DNA of 12,223 bases from Thermoflexales bacterium (GTDB lineage Bacteria; Chloroflexota; Anaerolineae; Fen-1058): assembly GCA_030834825.1 (NCBI GenBank), contig JAUQXC010000619.1, forward strand, positions 1 to 12,223, written 5' to 3'. This document shows positions 1 through 11,837 of the stretch, in pieces (the stretch's first letter is position 1; the number at the start of each line of letters is the position of its first letter). The position numbers were made by a program, and so were the translations under genes. The notes below the pieces were generated by a model, which was not told the origin of the DNA, did no database searches, and saw nothing but the letters and a program-made list of their open reading frames with translations.

Positions 1-211
1 GTGCTCCGACCGCGATCTGCGCCCCCAGCGTTTCGGTGAAACGGTTGTAGCGAAAACGACCGGGACCGCGCACCCCGGCATACAGTCCATTGTTATAAAC
101 TACCTGCACCGTCATGTCCGGCACAAAGCCGGCGCCAAACCACTTCCCGAACTTCAGCAGCAAGCGCAGTGAAAGCGGGTAACGGTTCTCGGTCGAAGAT
201 GACTTGCTCAT
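1..211 (-). CDS. Hypothetical protein, N-terminal 70 codons only; the gene continues past the left window edge. Last gene of the minus-strand cluster.
   Basis: ATG at 211..209 (minus). AGGAG sits 7 nt upstream, directly after the TGA stop of the 452-aa gene. The frame is open to position 1 (I translated it by hand: MSKSSSTENRYPLSLRLLLKFGKWFGAGFVPDMTVQVVYNNGLYAGVRGPGRF...). Third-position GC is about 70%. It is absent from the ORF track only because it is truncated by the window. Confidence 0.4.
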   Translation of the reverse strand, partial: MSKSSSTENRYPLSLRLLLKFGKWFGAGFVPDMTVQVVYNNGLYAGVRGPGRFRYNRFTETLGAQIAVGA

Positions 212-222
212 GCCTGGCTCCT

Positions 223-1581
223 TCAGTGGCTCACAAAGCGATAACCGTCTGGCTCGCGCTGAATCGCTTCTGCGACCTTGCCCAGCTTGGCACGAATCTG
301 CAGCACGTATTGAGCGAGTCGCTCAACGGGGTTGCCCTGGGCACGGTCGTGCGTCCGGCCGAGCTCAGCGGGACGCATGGCTTCAAAGAGCTCGTTGATG
401 CGGCAGAGGTCAGGACGGTGATGGTACAGGTGGCGCAGGATTTCGTACTCGGGCCAGTTTAAGCTGCTGATCAGCTGACCGTTGACGCGCACCTGGCGCG
501 CGGTTCCTACAAACTCGATCGTGACGGCTTCCCGCGACGGCCCGAATTGCTGGCGGAGGTACACCTCAAAAACCGGCGCGAAGATCTGTGGTGTGTTCAA
601 CGCGGGTGACAGGATCAAGCCCCGCCGCTTGAGCCGCGCTAAACCATCGGTCGTGGGCGCGGCTTGCGTGACGAGGCGGCGCAGTTCGGCGCGTTCCTCG
701 TCTTCCAGGCTGTGCAAGATCTTGCTGCACTCATCTTCAATGTCGGCATTGGTCAGCAATTGCGCCGGCGTCATGTTTTCCAGTGAGTCGGGGTTGCGTC
801 GCACGGCGAAATAGATCGAGCGGATCAGGCCGGCGTGACCGCCGCTCAACTCATAGATGCGCCGTTTTTCGCTGTACGCCAGTAAGGGCGCCGTTTCCTG
901 GCGAGACGCCAGGCGCTGCAACATGAAAAGTGCATCGGCTTCCAGGTAAGGTGTGATGGCGATGGTATGACCGGTGGCGGAGATCAATTCGAATAGTTCT
1001 TCAAATTCAGGGGTATTCAAGCGCAGGAACGCCGGCTCGCGCCGCGTCAGCGTGAGGTAGACGACCTGGCGTTTGTGGTTATCACGCAGCTCGCGCAGAT
1101 CGGCGAACAAGACCGGCGGCGCTTTGCCAAACAGATCATCACAGTCGTCCAGTTCCACCACGATCAGCTCGGCTCCGGCACGTGCCACGTGATCGATCGC
1201 GCGATCGAAGTTGCGCTTGGCTAATGCTTCCGGGCTGGCCTGTGCGGCCTGCCAGAGCTCAGTGAGGACCGGTAGCAGCGGTTGATAGACGCCCGCCAGT
1301 TCCTCGGCCATGCGGGTCAGTTGATCGAGCGCCTGCAGGTAGAGGGCCTGCGGCGGATGATGCGCCAGCGGTTTGCAGTTCACATACAGCACAAAGATGT
1401 GCGGCGCGCGATTTTCAAAATAGGTCAGACGGACGTCGGCGCGGGGCAGATGGCGCGCGATGTTGGATTTGCCGGAACTGCCCACACCGACCAGTGCGCA
1501 CGACTCGCCCATGCGCAACAGATCGATCACAGGCTCGAGAATTTCACGGCGAAAGGTGACCGGCGGCAGCAGCTCTGGCAT
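223..1581 (-). CDS. STAND/AAA_16-like P-loop NTPase fused to a C-terminal OmpR/PhoB-type (trans_reg_C) winged-helix DNA-binding domain; putative ATP-dependent transcriptional regulator.
   Basis: 452-aa ORF with an ATG start and AAGGA 6 nt upstream. The N-terminus reads FRREILEPVIDLL..GESCALVGVGSSGKSN, an AAA_16-style signature with Walker A GVGSSGKS. Walker B-like LIVVELDDCDD. Conserved YELSGGHAGL motif. The C-terminal ~100 aa (NWPEYEILRHLYHHRPDLCRINELFEAM...VERLAQYVLQIRAKL...EPDGYRFV) matches the OmpR/PhoB wHTH pattern (L..E..lL..L.......R..L...vW...........l...I..LR.KL......I.tv.G.GYr). Confidence 0.75.
   Translation of the reverse strand: MPELLPPVTFRREILEPVIDLLRMGESCALVGVGSSGKSNIARHLPRADVRLTYFENRAPHIFVLYVNCKPLAHHPPQALYLQALDQLTRMAEELAGVYQPLLPVLTELWQAAQASPEALAKRNFDRAIDHVARAGAELIVVELDDCDDLFGKAPPVLFADLRELRDNHKRQVVYLTLTRREPAFLRLNTPEFEELFELISATGHTIAITPYLEADALFMLQRLASRQETAPLLAYSEKRRIYELSGGHAGLIRSIYFAVRRNPDSLENMTPAQLLTNADIEDECSKILHSLEDEERAELRRLVTQAAPTTDGLARLKRRGLILSPALNTPQIFAPVFEVYLRQQFGPSREAVTIEFVGTARQVRVNGQLISSLNWPEYEILRHLYHHRPDLCRINELFEAMRPAELGRTHDRAQGNPVERLAQYVLQIRAKLGKVAEAIQREPDGYRFVSH
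226..549 (-). other. Approximate extent of the C-terminal OmpR/PhoB-family winged-helix (trans_reg_C-like) domain of the 452-aa protein.
   Basis: The motif pattern was recognised by eye (see the CDS entry). The boundaries are approximate. Confidence 0.5.
1465..1488 (-). other. Intact Walker A / P-loop (GVGSSGKS) of the 452-aa NTPase.
   Basis: The reverse complement of 1465..1488 is GGT GTG GGC AGT TCC GGC AAA TCC, which translates to G V G S S G K S. Confidence 0.8.
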
Positions 1582-1620
1582 GGCACATCCTTTCCGGGCA
1601 AGTGACTGACTGGCCTACCA

Positions 1621-2718
1621 CTAAACGGCGGCGTCGAGATCGCGCAGTCGGGACGATCGAACCGGTGGATCGGGCGGCGCGATCGGGCCTTGCGTCTTGA
1701 CGAAGGCTTCAAAGATGATCGAGAAGATACCGGGCGGATGGCCGACGATCAGCCCTTGCTTGCGCAGCCGTTCCAGCTCGCTCGATCGGATCGCGGCGCG
1801 CCGATCGGCCGTCAAGGTGAACAGGGCAAAGCGCTCGCCCAGATCGAGATCGTCCCAGATCGCCGCACAGAGCTCGTGTAGATGTTGCTCTTGTTGCACG
1901 CCGCGCTCGAAACTGCTCCAAGGCAGATGCCGCTGCTCTTCCCACAGGCGCAACACAGCCACCAACAGCTTGGCATGGCCTCCGGTCAGGCGATACAGCT
2001 GATCTTCGTCATCGGCCGTGGGGGGCAGCCGCCAGTCGAAGGTTTTGCGCCGGATGGCTGCGTGCGCGTCGGCGCGGGCATAGGGCCGGAGCGGATAAGT
2101 ATCTTCGTCAAACAGTTCGGTGAATTTATCGACGGCTTCGTCGTGTGCGCTGCGCTGTTGGGCCAGTGTGGTGAGTTCGCGGCAGGTGCCTACCAGATAG
2201 CACAAGCGCAGCTTGTGTTCATCACGCAGCTGGCGCAGCCGGCGCAGCCGGGCGACCGGCATTTGTAAAAATGGTTGATCGAATTCGTCGAAGATCAGCA
2301 GCAGGCGGTGCTGCGGCGTACGGCATAACAGCGTCACGGCTTTGGAGAGCAGTTCGTCAGGTTCCGCCTGATCGAGCTGTTGTTCCAGATAGTGCAGCGC
2401 ATTTTGATCGGCTCTGGCGCTGTGGTGATGTTCCGCGGCGCGGTTAATCTGCCGGATGATCTCACGAGAGAACTCGGTGGGTTGGGTGAGCCAGCCGGTC
2501 TCCAAATAGACGGGCAATGTATAGGTGGCCAGGGCGTTCAGATAGTTGTCGATGACGCGGCGTTCGGCGCTAAACCGCAACGCGTTGGACAGACCGGCGC
2601 CGCGCAGCCCGACCACGGCACACGATCGACCGGCGTGGATGGCGCGAAAGATAGGCGACATTAAGTCACGGCGAAAGTTGAGCGTGAGTTCGGGAGGAGC
2701 AGCGGGTATATCTAACAA
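1621..2718 (-). CDS. Paralogous STAND/AAA_16-like NTPase with a degenerate Walker A (no lysine) and no DNA-binding domain; probably a catalytically inactive partner subunit.
   Basis: 365-aa ORF that aligns along the whole ATPase region with the downstream 452-aa protein: LNFRRDLMSPIFRAIHAGRSCAVVGLRGAGLSN vs VTFRREILEPVIDLLRMGESCALVGVGSSGKSN; LLLIFDEFDQ vs LIVVELDDCDD; YRLTGGHAKLL vs YELSGGHAGLI. It starts with TTG at 2718, three nt after the TAA of the upstream gene. There is no in-frame ATG before the conserved FRR motif. Confidence 0.7.
   Translation of the reverse strand: MLDIPAAPPELTLNFRRDLMSPIFRAIHAGRSCAVVGLRGAGLSNALRFSAERRVIDNYLNALATYTLPVYLETGWLTQPTEFSREIIRQINRAAEHHHSARADQNALHYLEQQLDQAEPDELLSKAVTLLCRTPQHRLLLIFDEFDQPFLQMPVARLRRLRQLRDEHKLRLCYLVGTCRELTTLAQQRSAHDEAVDKFTELFDEDTYPLRPYARADAHAAIRRKTFDWRLPPTADDEDQLYRLTGGHAKLLVAVLRLWEEQRHLPWSSFERGVQQEQHLHELCAAIWDDLDLGERFALFTLTADRRAAIRSSELERLRKQGLIVGHPPGIFSIIFEAFVKTQGPIAPPDPPVRSSRLRDLDAAV
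2587..2610 (-). other. Degenerate Walker A: G L R G A G L S, with the P-loop lysine replaced by Leu (CTG).
   Basis: The reverse complement of 2587..2610 is GGG CTG CGC GGC GCC GGT CTG TCC. Compare GxxxxGK[ST] in the paralog at 1465..1488. Confidence 0.75.
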
Positions 2719-2721
2719 CGT

Positions 2722-3867
2722 TTACTCGGTTGCTGGCGAATCTAACGGCGTCAATAGAGCGACGACGGCGCCGGCGATCTGCACGTCGTCTTCATGGTAA
2801 GTTTTGGTGTCTGTGCCATCCTGAAAAGCCCAGACTCGTTCGCCGATGATCAACGGCGAAGCCGGCGGCTGGTTGTGTACCAACAAGGCGCGTTGTTCCG
2901 TGGGGATCAAAATCACGATCGGCCAATCGGGCGGCAGCGTTCGATCGTGCGAGCGGACCAGCGCAAAGTCGGGCTGGCCCGGTGGCTGTGGCTCACGCGC
3001 AGCCGCAAACTGAAAGGCGTAGTAGGGTTGGCCGGTCTGCATGCGGAACTTGCCCCGGGTGGGTTCGGGCGCCAGAATTTGATAATGCTGCCCGCCGATC
3101 GAGAGCTGATCGACCTCGATGTAGTCCAGTTTGTCAGGCTGCAGCTGGACGTGCTGCGATAAGATGGCCACGTTGTGTTCGGCGCTCTGTACCGGCATCA
3201 ACTGCATGCCGGCCAGATCGATATGGGTCCAGATAAGCTCAGCGGGAATCTCAATCTGATCGAGCCAATCCCGGTCGCTGCTTTCCTCCAGGGGAGGTGA
3301 CAAATGGGCCGGTGTAGGGCGATCGGCTAATGGCACGCGACGCACGGCCTGCTGCGCCGCCTGTTTGAGTCCCTGGTACTCTGCCTCCAGCCGCGGATTA
3401 CTTTGGCGATGTTGAACAACCATCAGCTTATCAAGGCGTGGCAAGGCGGCTTGATAATGGCGCACAGCCACTTCAAAGCGTTCTTCTTCCCAGGCGATGC
3501 GGGCCAGAACTAACTCGGCCAACGCATGGTGATATTCATCATGGGCTAGCCAGGTTAAGGCGAGCTGACCCGTGAGCAAAGCCCGACCCCCTTCGGCCGG
3601 CACCATGGAGAGATGGCGTAGATAGGCCAGGTAGAGCAGGGCAATGCCGGCCGAAGTGCGCCGCACTGCTTCCGTGGCGATGTCGCGCTTATTGACACTC
3701 CGGGCACGCGCTGCCAGACGTGTCGTGGCCCGAGCCAGTTCCAACGCCTTGTCAATCTCCTTGCGGCGCAGCCAATGCTGGGCTTCCTTGCAGCGTACAA
3801 GGATCTCCGGATCAACCCGGCGGGTGTCGATGGAGCGGAGCAGGCGCGGAATATTCAGAGGCACCAT
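2722..3867 (-). CDS. Hypothetical protein with a TPR-like helical N-terminal half and an unassigned C-terminal domain.
   Basis: 381-aa ORF with an ATG at 3867, 5 nt after the TAA of the upstream SPFH gene. Its N-terminus is helical and repeat-like (ALELARATTRLAARA...ALLYLAYLRHL...ALAELVLARIAWEEERFEVAVRHYQAAL). The C-terminal ~180 aa match no family I recognise. Confidence 0.65.
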   Translation of the reverse strand: MVPLNIPRLLRSIDTRRVDPEILVRCKEAQHWLRRKEIDKALELARATTRLAARARSVNKRDIATEAVRRTSAGIALLYLAYLRHLSMVPAEGGRALLTGQLALTWLAHDEYHHALAELVLARIAWEEERFEVAVRHYQAALPRLDKLMVVQHRQSNPRLEAEYQGLKQAAQQAVRRVPLADRPTPAHLSPPLEESSDRDWLDQIEIPAELIWTHIDLAGMQLMPVQSAEHNVAILSQHVQLQPDKLDYIEVDQLSIGGQHYQILAPEPTRGKFRMQTGQPYYAFQFAAAREPQPPGQPDFALVRSHDRTLPPDWPIVILIPTEQRALLVHNQPPASPLIIGERVWAFQDGTDTKTYHEDDVQIAGAVVALLTPLDSPATE

Positions 3868-3872
3868 TGAGC

Positions 3873-5702
3873 TTAACGTCCCGGCGGTCCTGGCGGCAAG
3901 TTGAGGCGGCGCAGCCGTTCCAGAACTTGATCTGCTTCCTTGCGTGTCGTGGTGGATAATAACGGCAGAATGGTCTCTCGCTGCAGGGTGCGTTCGATGG
4001 CGCGCGCCAAGGCTTCCACCACATCGCGTGAAAGTTGATTATTCGGATCCATCGTGCGCGCCGCCTGCACGATGCTTTTCACCAGCTCGGCCTGTGCTTC
4101 AGCGCGCACTGTTTGAAGTTGCAACAGTCCTTCGGCCTCGCCGCCTGAACGGATAATGGTCGATTCTTTTTCCCAGCCGGCCTGCCACATGTTGGTGCGC
4201 TGTGTGGTCACCTCCCGTGGCAGTTGCAGGTTGCCAAAGGTGCTGTCCACCAGTTCAAGCCCGCGTGCGGCCAGAGCCGCTTTGGCCGCGTTGTCGAGTT
4301 TGGCTGCAATTTCGCGCCGTGGACTGCGCCCGGGATCGTCGGGCGCAAAGATCTGATCGAGCATGCGGCGGTTCAACTCGTCACGCACTTCACCCACGGC
4401 GGAACTGAAGGCCGCCTGAAACCACTTGATCGGTTTAGGTGGCCGATGCACCTCATAGCAGGCCATGCGCAGCGCCTCCGGCGAAACCGGCGGTTCGGTG
4501 CCCGCGCCATGTGGCGTGCGCGTCAGATAGTGATGCAGCACGCTCAAAAAACGCGGATGCTGCGCCGAGGTGGGCGGCTCGCCCGGCATGCGCTCCATGA
4601 AGCGGAACATGGCGCCCTCCGCCGCGCGCACAGGAATACCATCTTTCGTCAGGCTCATTTCCACGCCGTCAAAGCTCTGCGTGCGCAGATCATAGATGGC
4701 GCGAATGCGCTCGAACGGCATCAGGGTATGATCTTCCGGTCCCAGGACGCGTGAATAACGTGCGCCGCGCTCCGTCAGCACGGCCGTGTGATCTTTGATG
4801 GACAGCACACCCGGCCCGCCGATCTTCAATAAGACCTCGTTGTCGTCATTCTGGGGGTTCTCGTAATCGCCGTGCTGCACTGAAATCCAGCCGCCGCCCA
4901 CCGGCAGGCCCAGGGTGGTGTTCACAACAAAGGCGACTCCATGCCAGAGGGACTTCAGGCTGTACATCTGTGCGACAAAGGTGCCTGCGCGGATGAAGGC
5001 AATGGCAATGCCAATCAGGGCCGGGATGATAAACCACCAATCGACGAAGAACTTGGGCGGGGCAGGCACGATGCCTTCAATGCCGGTCGCGACATCGACG
5101 GTGAACGTGAACTCCGGACCAAACCAGTGGATACCATCGGGTGCGAACAAACGCCACTTCGTCACGTAGGAGCCGGGGGCCGCGGGCGCGATCATCTCGA
5201 CGACGGGTGCCAGGATACCTTCTGGCGCGATGTCCGGCAAAGTATTGTCTGGGAACTGATAGGCCGGGACCGAGAGCGTATCCGTCAGCGCCTCCACCTG
5301 TCCATAGATCAAGCGGAACTGCACATCGGCGCCCCAGGCACAGGAGCTGGTGTTGCGAATGAACCACTGCGCGTAAATCTGAGCACCGGGCGGAGCGGCA
5401 ATATTCAAAGCTGGCGAAGCTTGTGGACCGCCTGCCGGTTGTCCCGTAGCCAATGTGGCTTCAGCCGAAGTCGCATTATAAATGCACTCCTTGCCCGGTT
5501 CGCGCTCGACGTAGCGTTCGGCCGGCGGTCTGATCGATTGCACGATCAAACCACCCGCCAGCCCCACAACGAGCAACGCCGCAAACAACGCCCCAAAGCG
5601 CAGCCAGGCGCGCACTTGCTCGTCGTGGCTTAGCGAGTAAGCCAGTGTCGCGATCAGGTCTTTAAGTCGTGGATGAGAATCCATGAGCGTCAGGTGGTTC
5701 AA
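3873..5702 (-). CDS. SPFH/band-7 (stomatin/prohibitin/flotillin/HflKC superfamily) membrane protein. An extracytoplasmic NBR1-like (N_BRCA1_IG / FW-type) Ig domain is inserted between two TM helices, and the C-terminal region is coiled-coil.
   Basis: 609-aa ORF. TM1 is FGALFAALLVVGLAGGLIVQ. The loop domain carries the NBR1-FW-like signature (W)FIRNTSSCAWGADVQFRLIYG ... APAAPGSYVTKWRLFAPDGIHWFGPEFTFTVDV. TM2 is WWFIIPALIGIAIAFIRAGTFVAQMY. The SPFH core reads LLKIGGPGVLSI...YDLRTQSFDGVEMSLTKDGIPVRAAEGAMFRF; compare stomatin GPGLFF...VDLRTQ...TKDNV.V.VDAVVYYRV. The track start is a TTG at 5702; an alternative ATG at 5684 is possible. Confidence 0.75.
   Translation of the reverse strand: MNHLTLMDSHPRLKDLIATLAYSLSHDEQVRAWLRFGALFAALLVVGLAGGLIVQSIRPPAERYVEREPGKECIYNATSAEATLATGQPAGGPQASPALNIAAPPGAQIYAQWFIRNTSSCAWGADVQFRLIYGQVEALTDTLSVPAYQFPDNTLPDIAPEGILAPVVEMIAPAAPGSYVTKWRLFAPDGIHWFGPEFTFTVDVATGIEGIVPAPPKFFVDWWFIIPALIGIAIAFIRAGTFVAQMYSLKSLWHGVAFVVNTTLGLPVGGGWISVQHGDYENPQNDDNEVLLKIGGPGVLSIKDHTAVLTERGARYSRVLGPEDHTLMPFERIRAIYDLRTQSFDGVEMSLTKDGIPVRAAEGAMFRFMERMPGEPPTSAQHPRFLSVLHHYLTRTPHGAGTEPPVSPEALRMACYEVHRPPKPIKWFQAAFSSAVGEVRDELNRRMLDQIFAPDDPGRSPRREIAAKLDNAAKAALAARGLELVDSTFGNLQLPREVTTQRTNMWQAGWEKESTIIRSGGEAEGLLQLQTVRAEAQAELVKSIVQAARTMDPNNQLSRDVVEALARAIERTLQRETILPLLSTTTRKEADQVLERLRRLNLPPGPPGR
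5088..5420 (-). other. Approximate extent of the extracytoplasmic NBR1-like Ig domain of the 609-aa SPFH protein.
   Basis: Roughly aa 95-205, between the two predicted TM helices. The assignment rests on remembered motif similarity only. Confidence 0.45.
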
Positions 5703-6999
5703 GCTGCGGCGGCAGTTCGCCTGGCCGCGCTATCTGCAAGACGAAGCGCAGCTGATCTTCTTCCAGCAGCGACCGCGTTTTAGGATCGTCAGTGATTTTC
5801 TTGACGACTTTCCAGAAATGCTGAGTGATTTGATCTTGATCGCCGCTGAGCGGCAGGTCTTGTTCCAAAGCTTGTGTCAGGCGCATGATACTTTCCAGCC
5901 GGGCCTGGGCCCGGGCTTTCTCGCGCTGCCGATCGGCTTCGGCCTGCCCCTCGGCATTCAGTTTGATCATGCGGCTTTCCCACTCGGCCTTCCAGGCTTT
6001 GATGCGTTGCGCCGTGATGGGGTCCAGTTCCGGCTTTTCCTGGTTGAAGGTCTTGTCGGGATCAAACTCTTGCGGTAGAAACATGGCGATGCTGAGACTG
6101 AGCACCTTGACGCCTTGCTGCATCAAGACCGGTTTCAAGCGTGCGATGATCTGCTCACGAATGTCTTTGCGTGGATCCCGGGTCGGTTCGTTGGGCGAGA
6201 GCAGGTCGTCAAAGCGGTATTCGGAGATGATGGCGCGCAGCATGCCTTTAGCATACAACAACGGCAAGTCGTTCCATTTTGTCAGCGGGCCGCCGCCGTC
6301 GACCACTTGCAAGTTCGTCAAGGCCCGGGCCACGGGCCGCATCGACCAGCTGATCGGCGCCGGGAAGGGGGCCTTAGGATCGTGCGCATGCAGATTTTTG
6401 TTGAAGTTCGCTTGATCGATCTGGAAGCGCAGCGTCAAACGTGCCTTGATGGGAATGCCGTCGCGGGTCATGAACTCAAATTCCTGCGACCGGAATTGAA
6501 TCCGCAGATCGACGATGTGCCGCAGTTGTTCCGTTTCACGCATGAAGACCAGGCCGGGGCCTTTGATGCGGCTGAGATCGATTTCGGTGTGCAGGGTCAC
6601 CACGCTGGTGCTATCCACGTCGATGACACCGTGCCCCCAGACCTCTTCGCGCGGCTCGCCGCCCGGTCCCGGTACTACGACACCGTCACGCACCACGGCC
6701 ATCGCCACCCGACCGCCCGTGGCAAACCGGCGCAGGATACCGCGTGCGGCCGCTTTCTCCTGTCTGTCACGGGGGTTAACGGGCAAGACGTGTGACCCTG
6801 CCAGCAGCAGCGTCAGGTAGAAAAACACCATCACGATGACGAAGGCGACAAACAGGTTGAACAGACCCGTGATGAAAATATCGTTGGTCAGGGCGCGTAA
6901 GGGACCAATGAAGAAGCCGTACAGAATCAAGACGGCTACCAGGATCATAATCGAAAGGCGGCCGGTAGAGGGCCGTTTGCGCTTCCTCATAATGTTCAC
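5662..6999 (-). CDS. SPFH/band-7 family membrane protein, a paralog of the downstream 609-aa protein. Two N-terminal TM helices, SPFH core, charged coiled-coil tail.
   Basis: 445-aa ORF. TMs: IMILVAVLILYGFFIGPL and LFNLFVAFVIVMVFFYLTLLLAG. SPFH core: IKGPGLVFMRETEQLRHIVDLRIQFRSQEFEFMTRDGIPIKARLTLRFQI. The C-terminal stretch is rich in E/K/R/Q (AEGQAEADRQREKARAQARLES). The track start is a GTG at 6999. An ATG at 6989 (MRKRKRP...) fits the predicted promoter and TSS better. Confidence 0.75.
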   Translation of the reverse strand: MNIMRKRKRPSTGRLSIMILVAVLILYGFFIGPLRALTNDIFITGLFNLFVAFVIVMVFFYLTLLLAGSHVLPVNPRDRQEKAAARGILRRFATGGRVAMAVVRDGVVVPGPGGEPREEVWGHGVIDVDSTSVVTLHTEIDLSRIKGPGLVFMRETEQLRHIVDLRIQFRSQEFEFMTRDGIPIKARLTLRFQIDQANFNKNLHAHDPKAPFPAPISWSMRPVARALTNLQVVDGGGPLTKWNDLPLLYAKGMLRAIISEYRFDDLLSPNEPTRDPRKDIREQIIARLKPVLMQQGVKVLSLSIAMFLPQEFDPDKTFNQEKPELDPITAQRIKAWKAEWESRMIKLNAEGQAEADRQREKARAQARLESIMRLTQALEQDLPLSGDQDQITQHFWKVVKKITDDPKTRSLLEEDQLRFVLQIARPGELPPQLEPPDAHGFSSTT

Positions 7000-7000
7000 T

Positions 7001-7030
7001 ACTATAGCATAAAGACCGCACGTTGACCAA
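7001..7030 (-). promoter_or_regulatory. Candidate sigma70-like promoter for the minus-strand cluster: -35 TTGGTC (7030..7025), 18-nt spacer, -10 TATAGT (7006..7001).
   Basis: The hexamers were read from the reverse complement of the only AT-richer intergenic stretch. The predicted TSS is around 6992-6995, so the transcript is leaderless or nearly so onto the ATG at 6989. Confidence 0.3.
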
Positions 7031-7043
7031 ACCTGGGTATAAT
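7023..7043 (+). promoter_or_regulatory. Candidate promoter elements for rlmD: a perfect TATAAT at 7038..7043, 7 nt before the ATG at 7051 (leaderless mRNA). TTGACC at 7023..7028 is too close (9-nt spacer) to act as its -35.
   Basis: TATAAT and TTGACC were read directly from the sequence. There is no SD before the ATG at 7051. Confidence 0.3.
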
Positions 7044-7050
7044 TCTCAGC

Positions 7051-8217
7051 ATGCCCTCTCCACTTGACCCGGCACGTGAAATCACCTTGCGCCTGGAAGC
7101 CATGACTTACGGCGGCGAGGCGCTGGGCCGTCTGGGTGGCAAGGCCATCTTCGTCTCAGGCGGTCTGCCTGGGGAGCAGGTTCGCATTGCCGTGGAAGAC
7201 GATCGCACGCGCTTTGCCCGTGCGCGGGTGATTGAGGTGATCGAGCCGTCTCCCGATCGGATTGCGCCGCGCTGCCCGCATTTCGGGTTTGACTCCACCG
7301 CGTGTGGCGGTTGTCACTGGCAGCACATCGACTATGCGGCCCAACTTCGTTTCAAGACGGCCATTGTGCGCGAGCAGTTGCAGCGGCTGGGTCATGTGCT
7401 TGAGCCTCCGGTGCGTGATACCCTCCCCAGCCCGGCGATCTGGCATTATCGCAATCACGCGCAATTTCACCTCACCAGAGAGGGCCAGCCTGGCTTTCAG
7501 GCAGCGCGCAGCCATCGGGTCGTTCCGCTTGAAGAGTGTCCGGTGATTGAGCCGGTGCTGGAAGACTGGTTGAAGTCGAACCGGCACAGCGTCAAGCGCG
7601 CCAGCCGCGCGAGTGTCCGGTCCGGTCATTCCTCCGATCGAACGAGCGGCGCGACGAGGTTTCAACTCAAGGACGCAACCTTGCGCGTGTCCGACGAGAG
7701 TTTCTTTCAGGTCAATACTTCCTTGATCGAAGGGTTGATCGATCAAGTCGTGATGAAGTTGGACCCGCAGCCACATGAGACGATCGTGGATGCTTATTGC
7801 GGGGTGGGCTTGTTCAGCCGTTTTCTCACCGCCCGGGCCGGACGGATAGTCGGCATTGAGTCGAGCGCCAGCGCGGTACACGATTTCCGAATGAATCTGG
7901 CGGGTTTTGATCAAGTTGAAGTGCGGCACGGTCCGGTCGAGAAGGTGTTGCCTCAGTTGGACATACCGATCGCAGCGGCGGTGTTTGATCCGCCCCGGGC
8001 CGGATGTGGGGCGCGCGTGATCGAAGCCATTGTCGCGCAGCGGATCGATCGGGTGGTCTACGTCAGCTGCGATCCGGCTACGCTGGCGCGTGACGTGCGG
8101 CAGTTGATCGACAGCGGTTACGCTCTGATCGAGGTACAGCCGCTCGATCTGTTTCCACACACGTATCATATCGAAACCATTACGTTGTTGCGCCGGGCCA
8201 ATCGGGCTATACTATGA
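7051..8217 (+). CDS. rlmD: 23S rRNA (uracil-C5)-methyltransferase, RlmD/RumA (TrmA) family, with an N-terminal TRAM domain and a [4Fe-4S] cluster.
   Basis: 388-aa ORF. TRAM-like N-terminus (GGEALGRLGGKAIFVSGGLPGEQVRIAV). Cys cluster CPHFGFDSTACGGCHWQH plus a distal Cys (EECPVIEP). FFQVN motif. SAM motif I VDAYCGVGLFSRFL. Motif IV FDPPRAG. C-terminal DLFPHTYHIETITLL. The symbol is given at family level; the exact target uridine is not determined. Confidence 0.88.
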   Translation: MPSPLDPAREITLRLEAMTYGGEALGRLGGKAIFVSGGLPGEQVRIAVEDDRTRFARARVIEVIEPSPDRIAPRCPHFGFDSTACGGCHWQHIDYAAQLRFKTAIVREQLQRLGHVLEPPVRDTLPSPAIWHYRNHAQFHLTREGQPGFQAARSHRVVPLEECPVIEPVLEDWLKSNRHSVKRASRASVRSGHSSDRTSGATRFQLKDATLRVSDESFFQVNTSLIEGLIDQVVMKLDPQPHETIVDAYCGVGLFSRFLTARAGRIVGIESSASAVHDFRMNLAGFDQVEVRHGPVEKVLPQLDIPIAAAVFDPPRAGCGARVIEAIVAQRIDRVVYVSCDPATLARDVRQLIDSGYALIEVQPLDLFPHTYHIETITLLRRANRAIL

Positions 8218-8219
8218 GC

Positions 8220-8223
8220 GGAG
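8220..8223 (+). promoter_or_regulatory. Shine-Dalgarno GGAG for the histidine kinase gene.
   Basis: GGAG lies 7 nt upstream of the ATG at 8231, in the 13-nt gap after the rlmD stop. Confidence 0.6.
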
Positions 8224-8230
8224 ATGGGGC

Positions 8231-10468
8231 ATGCTCAAATCGTATGCCGTCCGTTACGGGTTAAGCGCGCTGCTGTTGTCCCTGGCAGCGGCGTTCCTCT
8301 ACGCTGTTATTAAACTGATGGAAGTCGGCCGTGCGATCGCGCCGCGTGAGTTTTTCACCACGGTGGGGCCGGCATACTGGCTGGTGTTGACGCTGCTGCT
8401 GACTTTTGCCGCGTTGGCCTATGGTGCCGGCAAGCAGCGCGATCGGGCTGTGGCACTGGCGCGCGAGCGTGAAACATTAACCGGTATTTTGAGCACGTTG
8501 ATGCACGCGCCTGATCCCGATCTGGAGCAAAGTCTGCCGCGCGTGCTGCAACAGATCGCGGCCGTGGTGAGTGCGGAAGAGGCGGCGCTGTTGACGCTCG
8601 ATCACGAGCAGTGGGTGCTGCGTGCGGCAACTTCACAGACCTTGCCGGCCTTGTTGCAATTGCCCAAGGCACTCCCTTGGCCACCGGTGGATTCACGACA
8701 GATCATTGCCTGTGAGGCGCGACCGGAAGAATCTGTGGCTTTAACGTCGGCGGACCTACCCCGCGTCACCGCGTGTGTCGCCGTGTATTCTGAAGCGCAG
8801 CCACTGGGCTGGCTGGTGTTAGTGAAGCCACGAACTCAGGTGGCGCTGGGCGATGCGGCTGATTTGCTGATCACCCTGGCCGATCAGATTGGCGCTGCCT
8901 TAGCGCGTTCGCGGCAATATGCCCTGGTGCGCCGCCGCGCGCGCGACTTGGAAGCCATTACTCAGACAAATCGGCTGCTGTTGGCCGGTATGGGGCTGGA
9001 TGAGCTGCTGACGACCATCGTGAATTCAGCTCAGGTGCGCTTTGGGTTGCCCTATGTGACCGTCATGTGGATTGACGAGGTCGCAGGTGATTTCTATATA
9101 CGCGCACAGGCTGGCCCGTTAGTGGCGCTGGCTGTACCGAACTTTCGGCAGAAACTCACAACAGGATTGGCCGCGCAAGTGTTGCGCACGGGGCAGCCTT
9201 ATCTGGCGCGAGACACGCGACAAGAGCCGGACTACATTCCCGCGGTCAGCGCTGCCATTCGATCGCTGTTGTTGACGCCGCTGAAAACAGCCGAGCGGGT
9301 GATCGGTGTGATGACGTTTGAAAGTCTGGCCGTCGAGGCCTTCAGTGCTGAGGAAGTGTCGGCGTTGACGGCACTCACCGATCAGGCAGCCATTGCGGCC
9401 GAGAATGCCGCCCTGCTGATTGAGGCGCAGCGGGAGCGACAGCGGGCGAGTGCAATTTTGCATAGTGCGCGCGATGTGGTGGTGTTGATCGATACAGCCG
9501 ACCGCGTGCAGTTATTGAATCCGGCGGCCGAGCGGTTGTTGGGCGTCAGTGCAGCGACGGCGGTCGGCCGCCCGATCGAGCAGCTGCTGACCTTCCCGTC
9601 CGTGCTGGAGGCCTATCAGCGGCACACTCCCAACTCGGAAGAGCAGTCATTTGAAGCGCCGCTGGATAATGGGCAGACCTACCTGGTCACGATTACGATC
9701 GCGAAAGATGAAACAGGCGCGCATCTGGGGCGGGTGGTGATCATGCGTGACATCACTTATCTGAAGCGGCTGGATCAGTTCAAGTCGCAGATGGTACAGA
9801 TGACTTCACATGATCTGCGTACGCCGTTGGGAGTCGCCATCGGATATCTGGATCTCTTGAAAGACGACCTGCAACCGGCCACGCCGTTTCGTGAACGGGC
9901 CTTGCAGGGCCTGGAGGCTGCGCTGAACCGCATGCAGACGCTGGTCACCGAGTTGCTCGATTTGGAACGGGTGGAAGCGGGGACCGATCGTTTGCGAGTG
10001 CGGGTCGATGTGGGTAGTCTGGCGGCCGAGGCCGTGGCGGAGTTTGAAGAGATGGCCCAGACCCAGCAACAACAGGTGGACTTTACGCTGCCGCACGATC
10101 TGCCGTCGATTCGGGGCGATCCCGCCCGCTTGAAACAGGCCATCGGCAATCTGATCAACAACGCCGTGAAGTACACGCCGGACGGCGGGTCCATCTGGGT
10201 GCGCGTGCGGCCCGACGATCAGCGTGTTTTAATCGAAGTGCAGGACACAGGTTACGGTATTCCAGCGGCCGCGCAGGCGAAACTGTTTCAGCGTTTTTAT
10301 CGGGTCAGGATTCCCGGCGCAGAGAACATTGCAGGGACCGGACTTGGCCTGAGTCTGGTGAAGGCCATCGTGGAGCAGCATGGTGGACGTGTGTCTGCCG
10401 AGAGCGAGGAAGGCAAAGGCAGCACGTTTCGCATCTGGTTGCCAATGGCGGATGGTGAAAATGGCTAA
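8231..10468 (+). CDS. Membrane-anchored sensor histidine kinase: two TM helices, two GAF-like domains, a PAS domain, then HisKA and HATPase_c.
   Basis: 745-aa ORF. N-terminal TMs (LSALLLSLAAAFLYAVI; WLVLTLLLTFAALAYGA). The GAF-like stretch ends in VIGVMTFES. PAS: ILHSARDVVVLIDTADRVQLLNPAAERLLGVS...RDITYLK. H-box MTSHDLRTPLG (His at 9809..9811). N-box GNLINNAVKYT. G1/G2 DTGYGIP...GTGLGLSLVKAIVEQHGG. No receiver domain, and no response regulator gene in the window. Confidence 0.9.
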   Translation: MLKSYAVRYGLSALLLSLAAAFLYAVIKLMEVGRAIAPREFFTTVGPAYWLVLTLLLTFAALAYGAGKQRDRAVALARERETLTGILSTLMHAPDPDLEQSLPRVLQQIAAVVSAEEAALLTLDHEQWVLRAATSQTLPALLQLPKALPWPPVDSRQIIACEARPEESVALTSADLPRVTACVAVYSEAQPLGWLVLVKPRTQVALGDAADLLITLADQIGAALARSRQYALVRRRARDLEAITQTNRLLLAGMGLDELLTTIVNSAQVRFGLPYVTVMWIDEVAGDFYIRAQAGPLVALAVPNFRQKLTTGLAAQVLRTGQPYLARDTRQEPDYIPAVSAAIRSLLLTPLKTAERVIGVMTFESLAVEAFSAEEVSALTALTDQAAIAAENAALLIEAQRERQRASAILHSARDVVVLIDTADRVQLLNPAAERLLGVSAATAVGRPIEQLLTFPSVLEAYQRHTPNSEEQSFEAPLDNGQTYLVTITIAKDETGAHLGRVVIMRDITYLKRLDQFKSQMVQMTSHDLRTPLGVAIGYLDLLKDDLQPATPFRERALQGLEAALNRMQTLVTELLDLERVEAGTDRLRVRVDVGSLAAEAVAEFEEMAQTQQQQVDFTLPHDLPSIRGDPARLKQAIGNLINNAVKYTPDGGSIWVRVRPDDQRVLIEVQDTGYGIPAAAQAKLFQRFYRVRIPGAENIAGTGLGLSLVKAIVEQHGGRVSAESEEGKGSTFRIWLPMADGENG

Positions 10469-11837
10469 AGCAAAGACTTATACTCAGTTTGTCTGCCAGC
10501 AGTGTGGTTCCGTTCAGCTGAAGTGGATGGGGCGCTGTCCCGACTGCGGCGAGTGGAATTCGTTCGTCGAGGTGATCGAGGAACGTTCGAGCCAGAAGAG
10601 TCGCGCGGGCGGAGGACAGCCGCGGGCGACGCCCATCCGCTTGAGCGACGTGAAGACCGATGCGCTTGATCGCATCCCCATGGCGATGGAGGAATTCAGC
10701 CGCGTGTTGGGCGGCGGCATCGTGCCGGGCTGCCTGGTGTTGGTCAGCGGCGATCCGGGCATCGGCAAATCGACGCTGCTGATGCAGGTTGCCACGCAAG
10801 TCGCCGCCACCCATGGACCGGTGCTGTATGTGTCGGGCGAGGAGAGCGCCCAGCAGATCAAGATGCGGGCGCAACGCCTGGGTGATGATGGCCAACAACT
10901 GTATCTTTTGACGGAAACCGATCTGGATGAAATCAATCTTCACATTGCGAACCTGAAGCCGCGCCTGGCGATCATCGATTCGATTCAGACCATGACGGTG
11001 AGTGAACTCACTTCGGCAGCGGGATCGATCTCGCAGGTGCGCGAGTGCGCGGCGCGCTTGCAAGGCGTCGCCAAAGGGAGCGGGACGAGCGTGTTTATCG
11101 TGGGGCACGTGACCAAGTCGGGGTCGATCGCCGGCCCGAAGGTGCTGGAGCATATCGTCGATACGGTCCTGTATCTTGAGGGTGATCGCTTCCACACTTA
11201 TCGCTTGTTGCGCTCGACGAAGAATCGTTTTGGTGCGACCAACGAGGTGGGTGTCTTCGAGATGCGCGGCAGCGGCATGGCCGAGGTGCTGAATCCCAGC
11301 GAAGCGTTTCTGGCCGAACGTTTGCCCAATGCGCCTGGTTCGTCGATTGCCGTAACGATGGAAGGGACGCGTCCACTGCTGGTGGAAGTACAAGCCTTAT
11401 GCAGCACCAGCGCCTTTGGTTTGCCGCGCCGCACCGCAAACGGCCTGGACATGAATCGCTTGCTGCTGTTGACGGCCGTGTTGAGCAAGCGCGTGGGACT
11501 GAAGCTGGGCGATCAGGATGTTTTTGCCAATGTGATCGGTGGGCTGCACATCACCGAACCGGCGGCGGACTTAGCGATGGCCTGTTCCATTGCGTCGTCG
11601 ATGCGCGATGTGCCGGTCGCCGTCGATCTGGCGATCATCGGCGAGGTGGGGTTGAGCGGTGAACTACGTACCGTGGGGCAGTTGCCCGCCCGCTTGAACG
11701 AGGCGGCGAAGTTGGGCTTTGCCCGCGCGCTGATCCCCAAGACGCAGCGCGCGGCTGAACTGCCGCAGGATAAGATCGAGATTGTGATGGCGCGCAGTGT
11801 GAATGAGGCACTGACTCTTGCGCTAATGAAGAAGTGA
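10461..11837 (+). CDS. radA: DNA repair protein RadA/Sms.
   Basis: N-terminal C4 zinc finger CQQCGSVQLKWMGRCPDCGEWN. Walker A GDPGIGKST. Walker B LAIIDSIQ. RadA-specific KNRFG motif. Lon-protease-like C-terminal domain. The true start is taken as the ATG at 10461 (MAKAKTYTQF...), not the track's 10380. It overlaps the kinase stop by 8 nt (ATGGCTAA). Confidence 0.9.
   Translation: MAKAKTYTQFVCQQCGSVQLKWMGRCPDCGEWNSFVEVIEERSSQKSRAGGGQPRATPIRLSDVKTDALDRIPMAMEEFSRVLGGGIVPGCLVLVSGDPGIGKSTLLMQVATQVAATHGPVLYVSGEESAQQIKMRAQRLGDDGQQLYLLTETDLDEINLHIANLKPRLAIIDSIQTMTVSELTSAAGSISQVRECAARLQGVAKGSGTSVFIVGHVTKSGSIAGPKVLEHIVDTVLYLEGDRFHTYRLLRSTKNRFGATNEVGVFEMRGSGMAEVLNPSEAFLAERLPNAPGSSIAVTMEGTRPLLVEVQALCSTSAFGLPRRTANGLDMNRLLLLTAVLSKRVGLKLGDQDVFANVIGGLHITEPAADLAMACSIASSMRDVPVAVDLAIIGEVGLSGELRTVGQLPARLNEAAKLGFARALIPKTQRAAELPQDKIEIVMARSVNEALTLALMKK

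Follow-up and report, generated by a model that had tools for sequence, protein, structure and literature searches.

A 12,223-nt stretch of DNA from a Thermoflexales bacterium, an uncultured member of the Chloroflexota, was analysed (the whole stretch is hereafter 'the window'). Its minus strand carries five complete open reading frames (ORFs; genes A to E) and a sixth (F) that begins at position 211 and runs past the left edge. A nine-gene, co-directional operon of ~14 kb, A-B-C-D-E-F-G-H-I, starts in the window, which covers its promoter and first five and one-third genes. The firm result of the analysis is a conserved pairing, not described before, of a sensor-less STAND-type NTPase bearing an OmpR-type winged helix-turn-helix (wHTH) domain (E) with an SPFH protein (F). 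A preliminary description, made from the letters of the window alone, had reported six co-directional minus-strand genes, and all six ORFs were recovered where it had placed them; the observation was mostly correct though cut short, and part of its interpretation is supported. The features of the operon in the window are:

Promoter-like site, 7001..7029, minus strand: TGGTCA-17-TATAGT with an extended TG, the sole sigma70-like match in 1-7300.
Gene A, 5662..6999, minus strand: SPFH/Band_7 membrane protein, 442-445 amino acids (aa), Band_7 36.3 bits.
Gene B, 3873..5702, minus strand: SPFH protein paralogous to A, 603-609 aa, Band_7 29.1 bits, N_BRCA1_IG 50.2 bits.
Gene C, 2722..3867, minus strand: cytoplasmic protein, 381 aa, no Pfam family.
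Gene D, 1621..2718, minus strand: STAND-like NTPase, 365 aa, a paralogue of E with a degenerate Walker A motif and no wHTH.
Gene E, 223..1581, minus strand: predicted STAND-type nucleotide-binding oligomerisation domain (NOD) with a C-terminal OmpR/PhoB-type winged helix, 452 aa.
Gene F, 1..211, minus strand: SPFH/Band_7 protein, first 70 codons in the window (281 aa and Band_7 42.4 bits in locus L086).

The source locus was located with C as the anchor: a 213-kb Thermoflexales contig encodes a protein with 100% identity to C. The corresponding locus (L086; loci carry L numbers throughout) is 99.83% identical to the window, and the translation of F in the window is identical to the N-terminus of F from L086. 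The E protein of the recorded source strain differs from that of the window, for example by Lys for Glu at residue 55. Three more co-directional genes, G, H and I, follow F in L086. The sixth gene is no separate DNA-binding output and encodes a third SPFH protein; nor do the six genes form the complete chain that had been supposed, since the nine-gene operon of L086 goes on to include a further STAND NTPase, a histidine kinase (HK) and a receiver-kinase.

E is predicted, from motifs and a structure model, to be a STAND-type NOD protein related to nSTAND1, with an OmpR-type wHTH and without a sensor domain of its own. Its Walker A (GVGSSGKS, nt 1465-1488) and Walker B (LDDCDD, nt 1135-1152) motifs are invariant or nearly so in 32 homologues, a GGHAGL motif lies at nt 826-843 and the wHTH spans nt 235-531. 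All three parts of a NOD were recognised, namely a nucleotide-binding domain (NBD), a helical domain (HD) with a GxP-type motif and a winged-helix domain (WHD). In the model of E (pLDDT 91) the NOD is nearest to archaeal ATPase_2, plant NLR resistosomes, Cdc6/Orc1, CED-4 and MalT, and the C-terminal domain, which has the sequence features and fold of Trans_reg_C, superposes on OmpR-family DNA-binding domains at 2.0 A. The wHTH follows the WHD directly, and no C-terminal repeat sensor (TPR, WD40 or LRR) was found on E. The nSTAND1 family (PF20703, gathering score (GA) 27.1 bits) gives no match in E itself; it is matched by G (31.1 bits) and by E', a paralogue of E in L015 (39.9 bits) that also scores above the gathering score of Trans_reg_C. 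Profile comparison with hhalign related the E family to G (probability 95%, E 3.7e-8) and to the N-terminus of H (78%).

The E family is small: 1.84 billion proteins yielded 463 representatives at E<=1e-10, nearly all of them ~450 aa long. Rare longer relatives (P0176, P0296 and P0297; 759-912 aa) carry an E-type NOD at the C-terminus, after an unassigned N-terminal region of 290-570 aa. Distant E-like NTPases of 360-400 aa, with an intact Walker A and no wHTH, occur at L037-L085 (e.g. L076, 2966-4700), where a UPF0029/IMPACT-family gene lies directly downstream in 28/49 and TPR, SH3 and YkuD genes are near; this subfamily was excluded from the system as its context, which is conserved, is unrelated and housekeeping-like.

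Anchored on E, a search of GTDB species representatives gave 80 loci, almost all of them from Chloroflexota, and metagenome assemblies added six contexts. Full-length E was present at 34 distinct loci; the 33 junctions and 36 scored loci referred to below include near-duplicates. F lies directly downstream of E in 30 of the 34 distinct loci, at E identities across species of 28-62%, and the E-F junctions have a median gap of 4 nt, with 4-nt overlaps in 9 of 33. Counting any SPFH gene, one adjoins the E relatives in 31 of the 34. The four loci without F directly downstream comprise the L001/L095/L097 lineage, which lacks F and has E behind A-B-C, and thus behind the SPFH genes A and B; one locus that was not assessable; and L029 and L021, which have no adjacent SPFH gene. 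The ORF after E in L029 was considered as a divergent SPFH gene and rejected (hhalign probability 0.2%). The neighbourhood comparison by which the preliminary description had proposed to test its SPFH/STAND pairing did not refute it; the partner that is conserved is not A or B but F, which had been left unidentified. Predicted to be a soluble SPFH protein, F is kept beside E more constantly than any other partner; its orthologues score 24.5-38.3 bits against Band_7 (PF01145, GA 23.6 bits), and no transmembrane (TM) segment was predicted in any protein from C through I.

E-F occurs without A-B-C in ~30 other Chloroflexota species. E and the translationally coupled F form the invariant core of a module (module 2) found across the Chloroflexota, to which D, G, H and I are frequent accessories. 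Of the 36 scored loci, 20 have a TCAD9-kinase gene linked to E and 12 have G so linked; the arrangements are E-F-G-H-I or G-H-I-(E')-E-F, as well as D-X-E-F and E-F alone. The receiver-fused partner is TCAD9 in 19 of 20 cases and a CHAT protease in L015. The latter locus has a convergent second operon (12296-21133, minus strand) that encodes a CHAT protein, a 1663-aa 8xGAF-HisKA-HATPase_c kinase, a receiver (REC)+CHAT protein of 504 aa and E'. At L002 (5219-12288), as also at L006 and L009, a 208-aa protein, a D-type dead NTPase and an 884-aa protein without a Pfam match precede E and F; the 884-aa protein was rejected as an analogue of C (hhalign probability 0.5%). At L014, L017, L023 and L034 (~8630-11340), a tandem of full-length, Walker-A-intact E' and E follows REC-TCAD9 and a GAF kinase of 1300-1700 aa, the second active paralogue taking the position that D has in the window.

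D is the paralogue of E in the window (28% identity, BLASTP E 4e-24). Its Walker A reads GLRGAGLS (nt 2587-2610), with Leu in place of the Lys, and the Lys is replaced by Leu or Met in 7/7 D orthologues. The Walker B and GGH motifs are kept, the protein ends ~20 aa past the NOD, and its matches to AAA_22 and AAA_16 are sub-threshold. Iterated D and E hidden Markov models converged on one family, and proteins were assigned to D or E by motif and length instead. The pair of a dead and a live STAND protein recognised in the preliminary description, the live one with an OmpR-type wHTH, was in this respect well founded.

The likewise proposed pair of paralogous SPFH proteins, one with an Ig-like domain, is also real. 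A and B both exceed the Band_7 gathering score, share 25% identity (E 4e-18) and have C-terminal coiled-coil regions. A TM hairpin is predicted at the N-terminus of A (residues 15-33 and 49-67), and A is related to the F family with an hhalign probability of 91%. B is ordered as TM1 (nt 5541-5597), an Ig-like domain (nt 5091-5396), TM2 (nt 4965-5048), the SPFH domain and a coiled coil. The Ig-like domain resembles the NBR1 structure 4ole (E 6e-6), and as the two predicted TM helices flank it, this NBR1-type domain is predicted to be extracytoplasmic. At the sequence level A, B and F match solved SPFH structures hardly at all; compared with HflK/HflC, NfeD-stomatin operons and flotillins, B stands apart by its TM-Ig-TM insertion and F by the absence of a TM segment.

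C has only 32 homologues, none of which matches Pfam, and lies directly downstream of B in every contig that bears it. Its first half (residues 1-177; AlphaFold pLDDT 80-95) is built of helical repeats, and the earlier designation as TPR-like stands as far as a weak, generic resemblance of this half (best Foldseek E 8e-3); it does not extend to a Pfam assignment (TPR_2, E-value ~1). The second half (residues ~200-381) is beta-rich and well conserved, with pLDDT below 50 and no confident fold.

Divergently from A lies a second, tight operon with an unusual gene combination (7051-11837, plus strand):

7051-8217, plus strand: TRAM/U5-methyltransferase (MTase).
8231-10468, plus strand: GAF-PAS histidine kinase (HK).
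About 10461-11837, plus strand: RadA/Sms, with an 8-nt overlap.

This RadA-HK-MTase operon is syntenic in L001, L015, L086, L089, L090 and L095, and A-B-C was found only beside it. A-B-C is thus a module of its own (module 1), specific to one Thermoflexales-like lineage, and the nine-gene operon is a composite of two modules, not the single evolutionary unit that had been supposed for its first six genes: A-B-C stands without D-I in L089 and L093, as E-F does without A-B-C elsewhere. D or E directly follows C in 7 of 10 assessable contexts, the exceptions being L089, with nothing in the slot, L093 and L090. In L093 a 64-aa ORF (4559-4753) between C and a PsuG-like gene matches residues 477-537 of I at 75% identity; this 61-residue remnant marks the end of the block, and indicates that D through most of I were lost together while A-B-C was kept. 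In L090 the slot (11594-15638) holds LSDAT_prok and TIR_2 genes, for none of which PADLOC has a matching model; in this relative A and B look fragmented, perhaps by assembly frameshifts. The exact order A-B-C-D-E-F recurs in L015, where identity has fallen to 27% for C, 38% for D and 36% for E, which argues for long-term co-retention. The L001 lineage has kept E next to A-B-C, with D, F, G, H and I absent. All A-B-C loci share ancestry, however, and independence of their adjacency to D or E cannot be claimed. The inference that E had been replaced independently at the C junction of L099 was withdrawn, given that D co-diverges with C, that the divergent gene may be an extra paralogue and that the contig ends there.

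GC content is uniform in the window (~0.60), and Rfam and tRNA scans of it were empty. A and B overlap by 23-41 nt, depending on the start of B, and the next four junctions measure 5, 3, 39 and 11 nt; three of the five junctions are thus overlapping or of 5 nt or less, as had been noted, and those of 39 and 11 nt are not. From F to I in L086 the junctions are 55, -4 and 3 nt. The single promoter-like region proposed at 7001..7030 was confirmed as the sole sigma70-like match, and the block TTTGGTCAA..CTTTATGCTATAGT is conserved in L086, L001, L089 and L090. Neither an internal promoter nor an above-chance terminator was found within the gene cluster in a 7.3-kb scan (7 terminator-like hairpins against 6.8 expected), in line with the single promoter-like region proposed. 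ATG 6990 of gene A lies 10 nt past the -10 element, and the corresponding distance is 6-10 nt across orthologous loci, which points to a leaderless or near-leaderless operon transcript. By this spacing, and by the 442-aa call of gene A in L086, ATG 6990 is most likely its start in place of GTG 6999, as first annotated. The divergent MTase gene (ATG 7051, plus strand) also looks leaderless, with TATAAT exactly 7 nt upstream (7038-7051), a spacing repeated in L001, L089, L090 and L095. A GGTCnnnnTGC direct repeat with an 11-bp period over the -35 element was considered as an operator and rejected, its second half-site not being conserved in L001, L089 and L090.

The genes past the window edge, as found in L086, are:

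Gene G, 521 aa: nSTAND1/AAA_22 NTPase, nSTAND1 31.1 bits against a gathering score of 27.1.
Gene H, 1131 aa: degenerate E-like NOD with two GAF domains and a HATPase_c histidine kinase.
Gene I, 537 aa: receiver with a TCAD9/APH-like kinase, TCAD9 127 bits.

H scores 75.9 bits against HATPase_c and has an H-box-like GLLHQINN, read from the sequence, with no Pfam HisKA match. Its N-terminus (L086, 16120-17100) is a degenerate NOD of the E/D type (GPRYHHKS, CIDDLE, TGGDRTLV), so that the operon appears to encode four paralogous NOD modules, one dead, one degenerate and two intact. The receiver of I (REC, 59.6 bits) has a D58 that is invariant in 20 orthologues, and its kinase residues K221, HGD..N and D403 are invariant or nearly invariant in 20 sequences. 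Both H and I look functional and have the elements of a two-component pair (HATPase_c, an H-box-like motif, receiver Asp), and the TCAD9/APH-like kinase of I is apparently active.

The preliminary description had held that the set was none of HflKC, NfeD-stomatin, AfsR/SARP or MalT, and the comparison with known systems agrees: no named system was matched in PADLOC or NCBIfam, and no SPFH-STAND system is described in the literature searched. MalT and the LAL regulators combine a NOD with a SUPR/TPR sensor and a C-terminal LuxR-type HTH, whereas E lacks the sensor and its DNA-binding domain is of the OmpR type. SARP/AfsR proteins run from an N-terminal wHTH through BTAD and NB-ARC to TPR; in E the order is reversed, with the NOD before the wHTH, and there is no BTAD or TPR match. 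The partners of E, SPFH proteins and a dead paralogue, are not known for MalT, AfsR/SARP-LAL or GutR. A and B recall HflK/HflC in being side-by-side paralogous Band_7 membrane proteins; the NCBIfam match to HflC is 11.1 bits against a cutoff of 427, however, and the 21-kb locus has no ftsH gene. As to NfeD-stomatin operons, no Pfam NfeD match was found among the proteins of the locus, and no FtsH among the nine gene products.

Two further comparisons concern arrangement. In the Psp response a membrane-associated scaffold, PspA, binds and controls an ATPase activator, PspF, a conceptual parallel to SPFH and E; the components are non-homologous (PspA is a member of the ESCRT-III family, PspF an AAA+ enhancer-binding protein acting with sigma54), which leaves an analogy alone. 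Paired sensor/helper NLRs (plant NRC networks; NAIP-NLRC4) likewise set a P-loop-degenerate beside a P-loop-intact NOD paralogue, and plant NLR resistosomes are among the top structural matches. Unlike those pairs, D and E carry neither a repeat sensor, LRR or other, nor a cell-death domain, and the output is a wHTH; the likeness is structural and organisational only.

Given these features, the likeliest reading, which we advance tentatively, is that the operon encodes an NTP-driven transcription switch resembling MalT and AfsR, controlled by SPFH assemblies and a kinase relay. MalT, GutR and AfsR are cited as STAND transcription regulators in PMC13581612. E would be an oligomerising switch of this type which, having no sensor domain, would have its activity set in trans by SPFH assemblies that bind, sequester or localise it. 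F would play the SPFH role everywhere, and in the A-B-C lineage A and B might add a membrane cage with an external Ig domain. Within mixed NOD oligomers D would be a partner that needs no P-loop, as in the sensor/helper pairs of NLRs, and the GAF-kinase/receiver-kinase relay from H to I may phosphorylate the NOD proteins, as AfsK does AfsR. The output would be clustered wHTH domains bound to DNA. The order of action proposed earlier, from sensor through adaptor and switch to DNA, is one that we infer.

SPFH scaffolds organise signalling complexes, and the sensor kinase KinC, for example, depends on flotillin in Bacillus. AfsK-AfsR and PspA-PspF are regulatory pairs that serve as precedents.

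Several points weigh against a transcription switch of this kind. In L029 the ORF after E is not an SPFH gene, and F is missing; A-B-C can part from D-I, as L089 and the scar in L093 show; and since every locus with A-B-C and E shares the RadA-HK-MTase synteny, their adjacency could be inherited rather than selected. The sole operator-like repeat at the promoter is not conserved among the loci compared (L001, L089, L090), and E itself falls under the Pfam gathering thresholds (AAA_16 30.6 bits vs GA 32.6). Two others fit an immune function: predicted conflict systems are where nSTAND1 and TCAD9 were defined as families, and a CHAT protease replaces the kinase in L015.

The main rival is an NLR-like conflict system of filamentous Chloroflexota, anti-phage or programmed-death in nature, made up of D-E-F-G-H-I, which we consider unlikely. 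An invader would be sensed by the NOD proteins, which would oligomerise together; the response would be carried out by the REC-kinase or the REC-CHAT protease, and possibly by the SPFH protein; and the wHTH would either sense DNA or induce effectors encoded elsewhere. G and E' pass the nSTAND1 threshold and I matches TCAD9 at 127 bits, both families coming from predicted conflict systems of multicellular bacteria, and the output domain is swapped in a preserved context (TCAD9 kinase in 19/20, caspase-like CHAT protease in L015). Yet the minimal conserved pair, E-F, includes no recognised toxic effector, and regulators typically have an OmpR DNA-binding domain such as the invariant component carries. 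Also in favour of a conflict system, a conserved inactive NOD paralogue recalls the iSTAND proteins known from such systems, the loci vary in gene order and content, and one metagenome-assembled genome (SHND01) holds two copies (L019 and L025). The family is also sparse and small, and the D-I slot turns over, being deleted in L093 and filled by LSDAT and TIR genes in L090, although the latter match no PADLOC model. Against it, PADLOC (PADLOC-DB 2.0) gave nothing more for the nine proteins than a match of the REC part of I to PD-T4-6 (E 1.5e-7); a PADLOC scan of neighbours showed no excess of known defence genes (~6-8/140 neighbours vs 6-7/138 in the control); and E has no match in phage, plasmid or IMG/VR collections.

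The closest relatives of such a system would be those of Kaur et al. 2020 and 2021 (PMC7159879, PMC8195603), with which the operon shares nSTAND1 (G, E'), TCAD9 (I), an inactive STAND paralogue, effector-domain displacement and an occurrence in filamentous Chloroflexota. It differs from them in that a MoxR-vWA pair, VMAP, an effector-associated (EAD) or Death-like adaptor and a GTPase core are all lacking. The MoxR-vWA ternary systems (Kaur et al. 2020) need MoxR and vWA plus VMAP or iSTAND, and only TCAD9 is shared here. The main texts of the two papers contain no SPFH/wHTH/histidine-kinase combination, SPFH being absent or confined to the reference list, and histidine-kinase domains are absent among the vWA-associated effectors as presented in the main text of PMC7159879.

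Still more doubtful is a fortuitous juxtaposition, in which A-B-C would be an independent, lineage-specific membrane-scaffold module and D-I a block that came, by arrival or by inheritance, to occupy the variable slot from C to the PsuG-like gene and is read through from the A promoter with no functional link: A-B-C does stand alone in L089 and, with the remnant of I, in L093, some 30 loci have E-F without it, the same flank at every A-B-C locus may mean that the adjacency of E is simply inherited, conservation of the A promoter is the same whether or not a locus has E, and unrelated genes fill the slot in L090, but the C-to-D gap is 3 nt without a promoter or terminator signal, the six-gene order persists in L015 with C, D and E co-diverging, D or E follows C in most of the assessable contexts, the L001 lineage retained E there when the rest of the block was absent, and E otherwise almost never lacks an SPFH neighbour.

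To a broader proposal we give low credence. SPFH proteins would be direct regulatory ligands or platforms of an NLR-like STAND NTPase: F, being soluble, and in this lineage also A and B, as a membrane cage with an external Ig sensor, would gate oligomerisation in a mixed NOD signalosome (D, E, G, H). Its outputs would be transcription, through the wHTH of E, and a receiver-controlled kinase or caspase-like protease, in an immune-type pathway of filamentous Chloroflexota, not recognised before, that senses membrane integrity or invaders.

The family is small and confined to Chloroflexota that are mostly uncultured, and what is said here of its function is inferred. STAND/NLR-type NTPases are central switches of immunity and regulation, and SPFH proteins are membrane scaffolds of universal occurrence, the functions of which in bacteria are for the most part not known. 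With a STAND-wHTH/SPFH pair that is conserved and translationally coupled, SPFH proteins would gain a definite client in signalling, and the pair would also show how a sensor-less STAND regulator can be controlled in trans; and with four NOD modules in one operon, the system would offer a compact bacterial model for the logic of sensor and helper NLRs.

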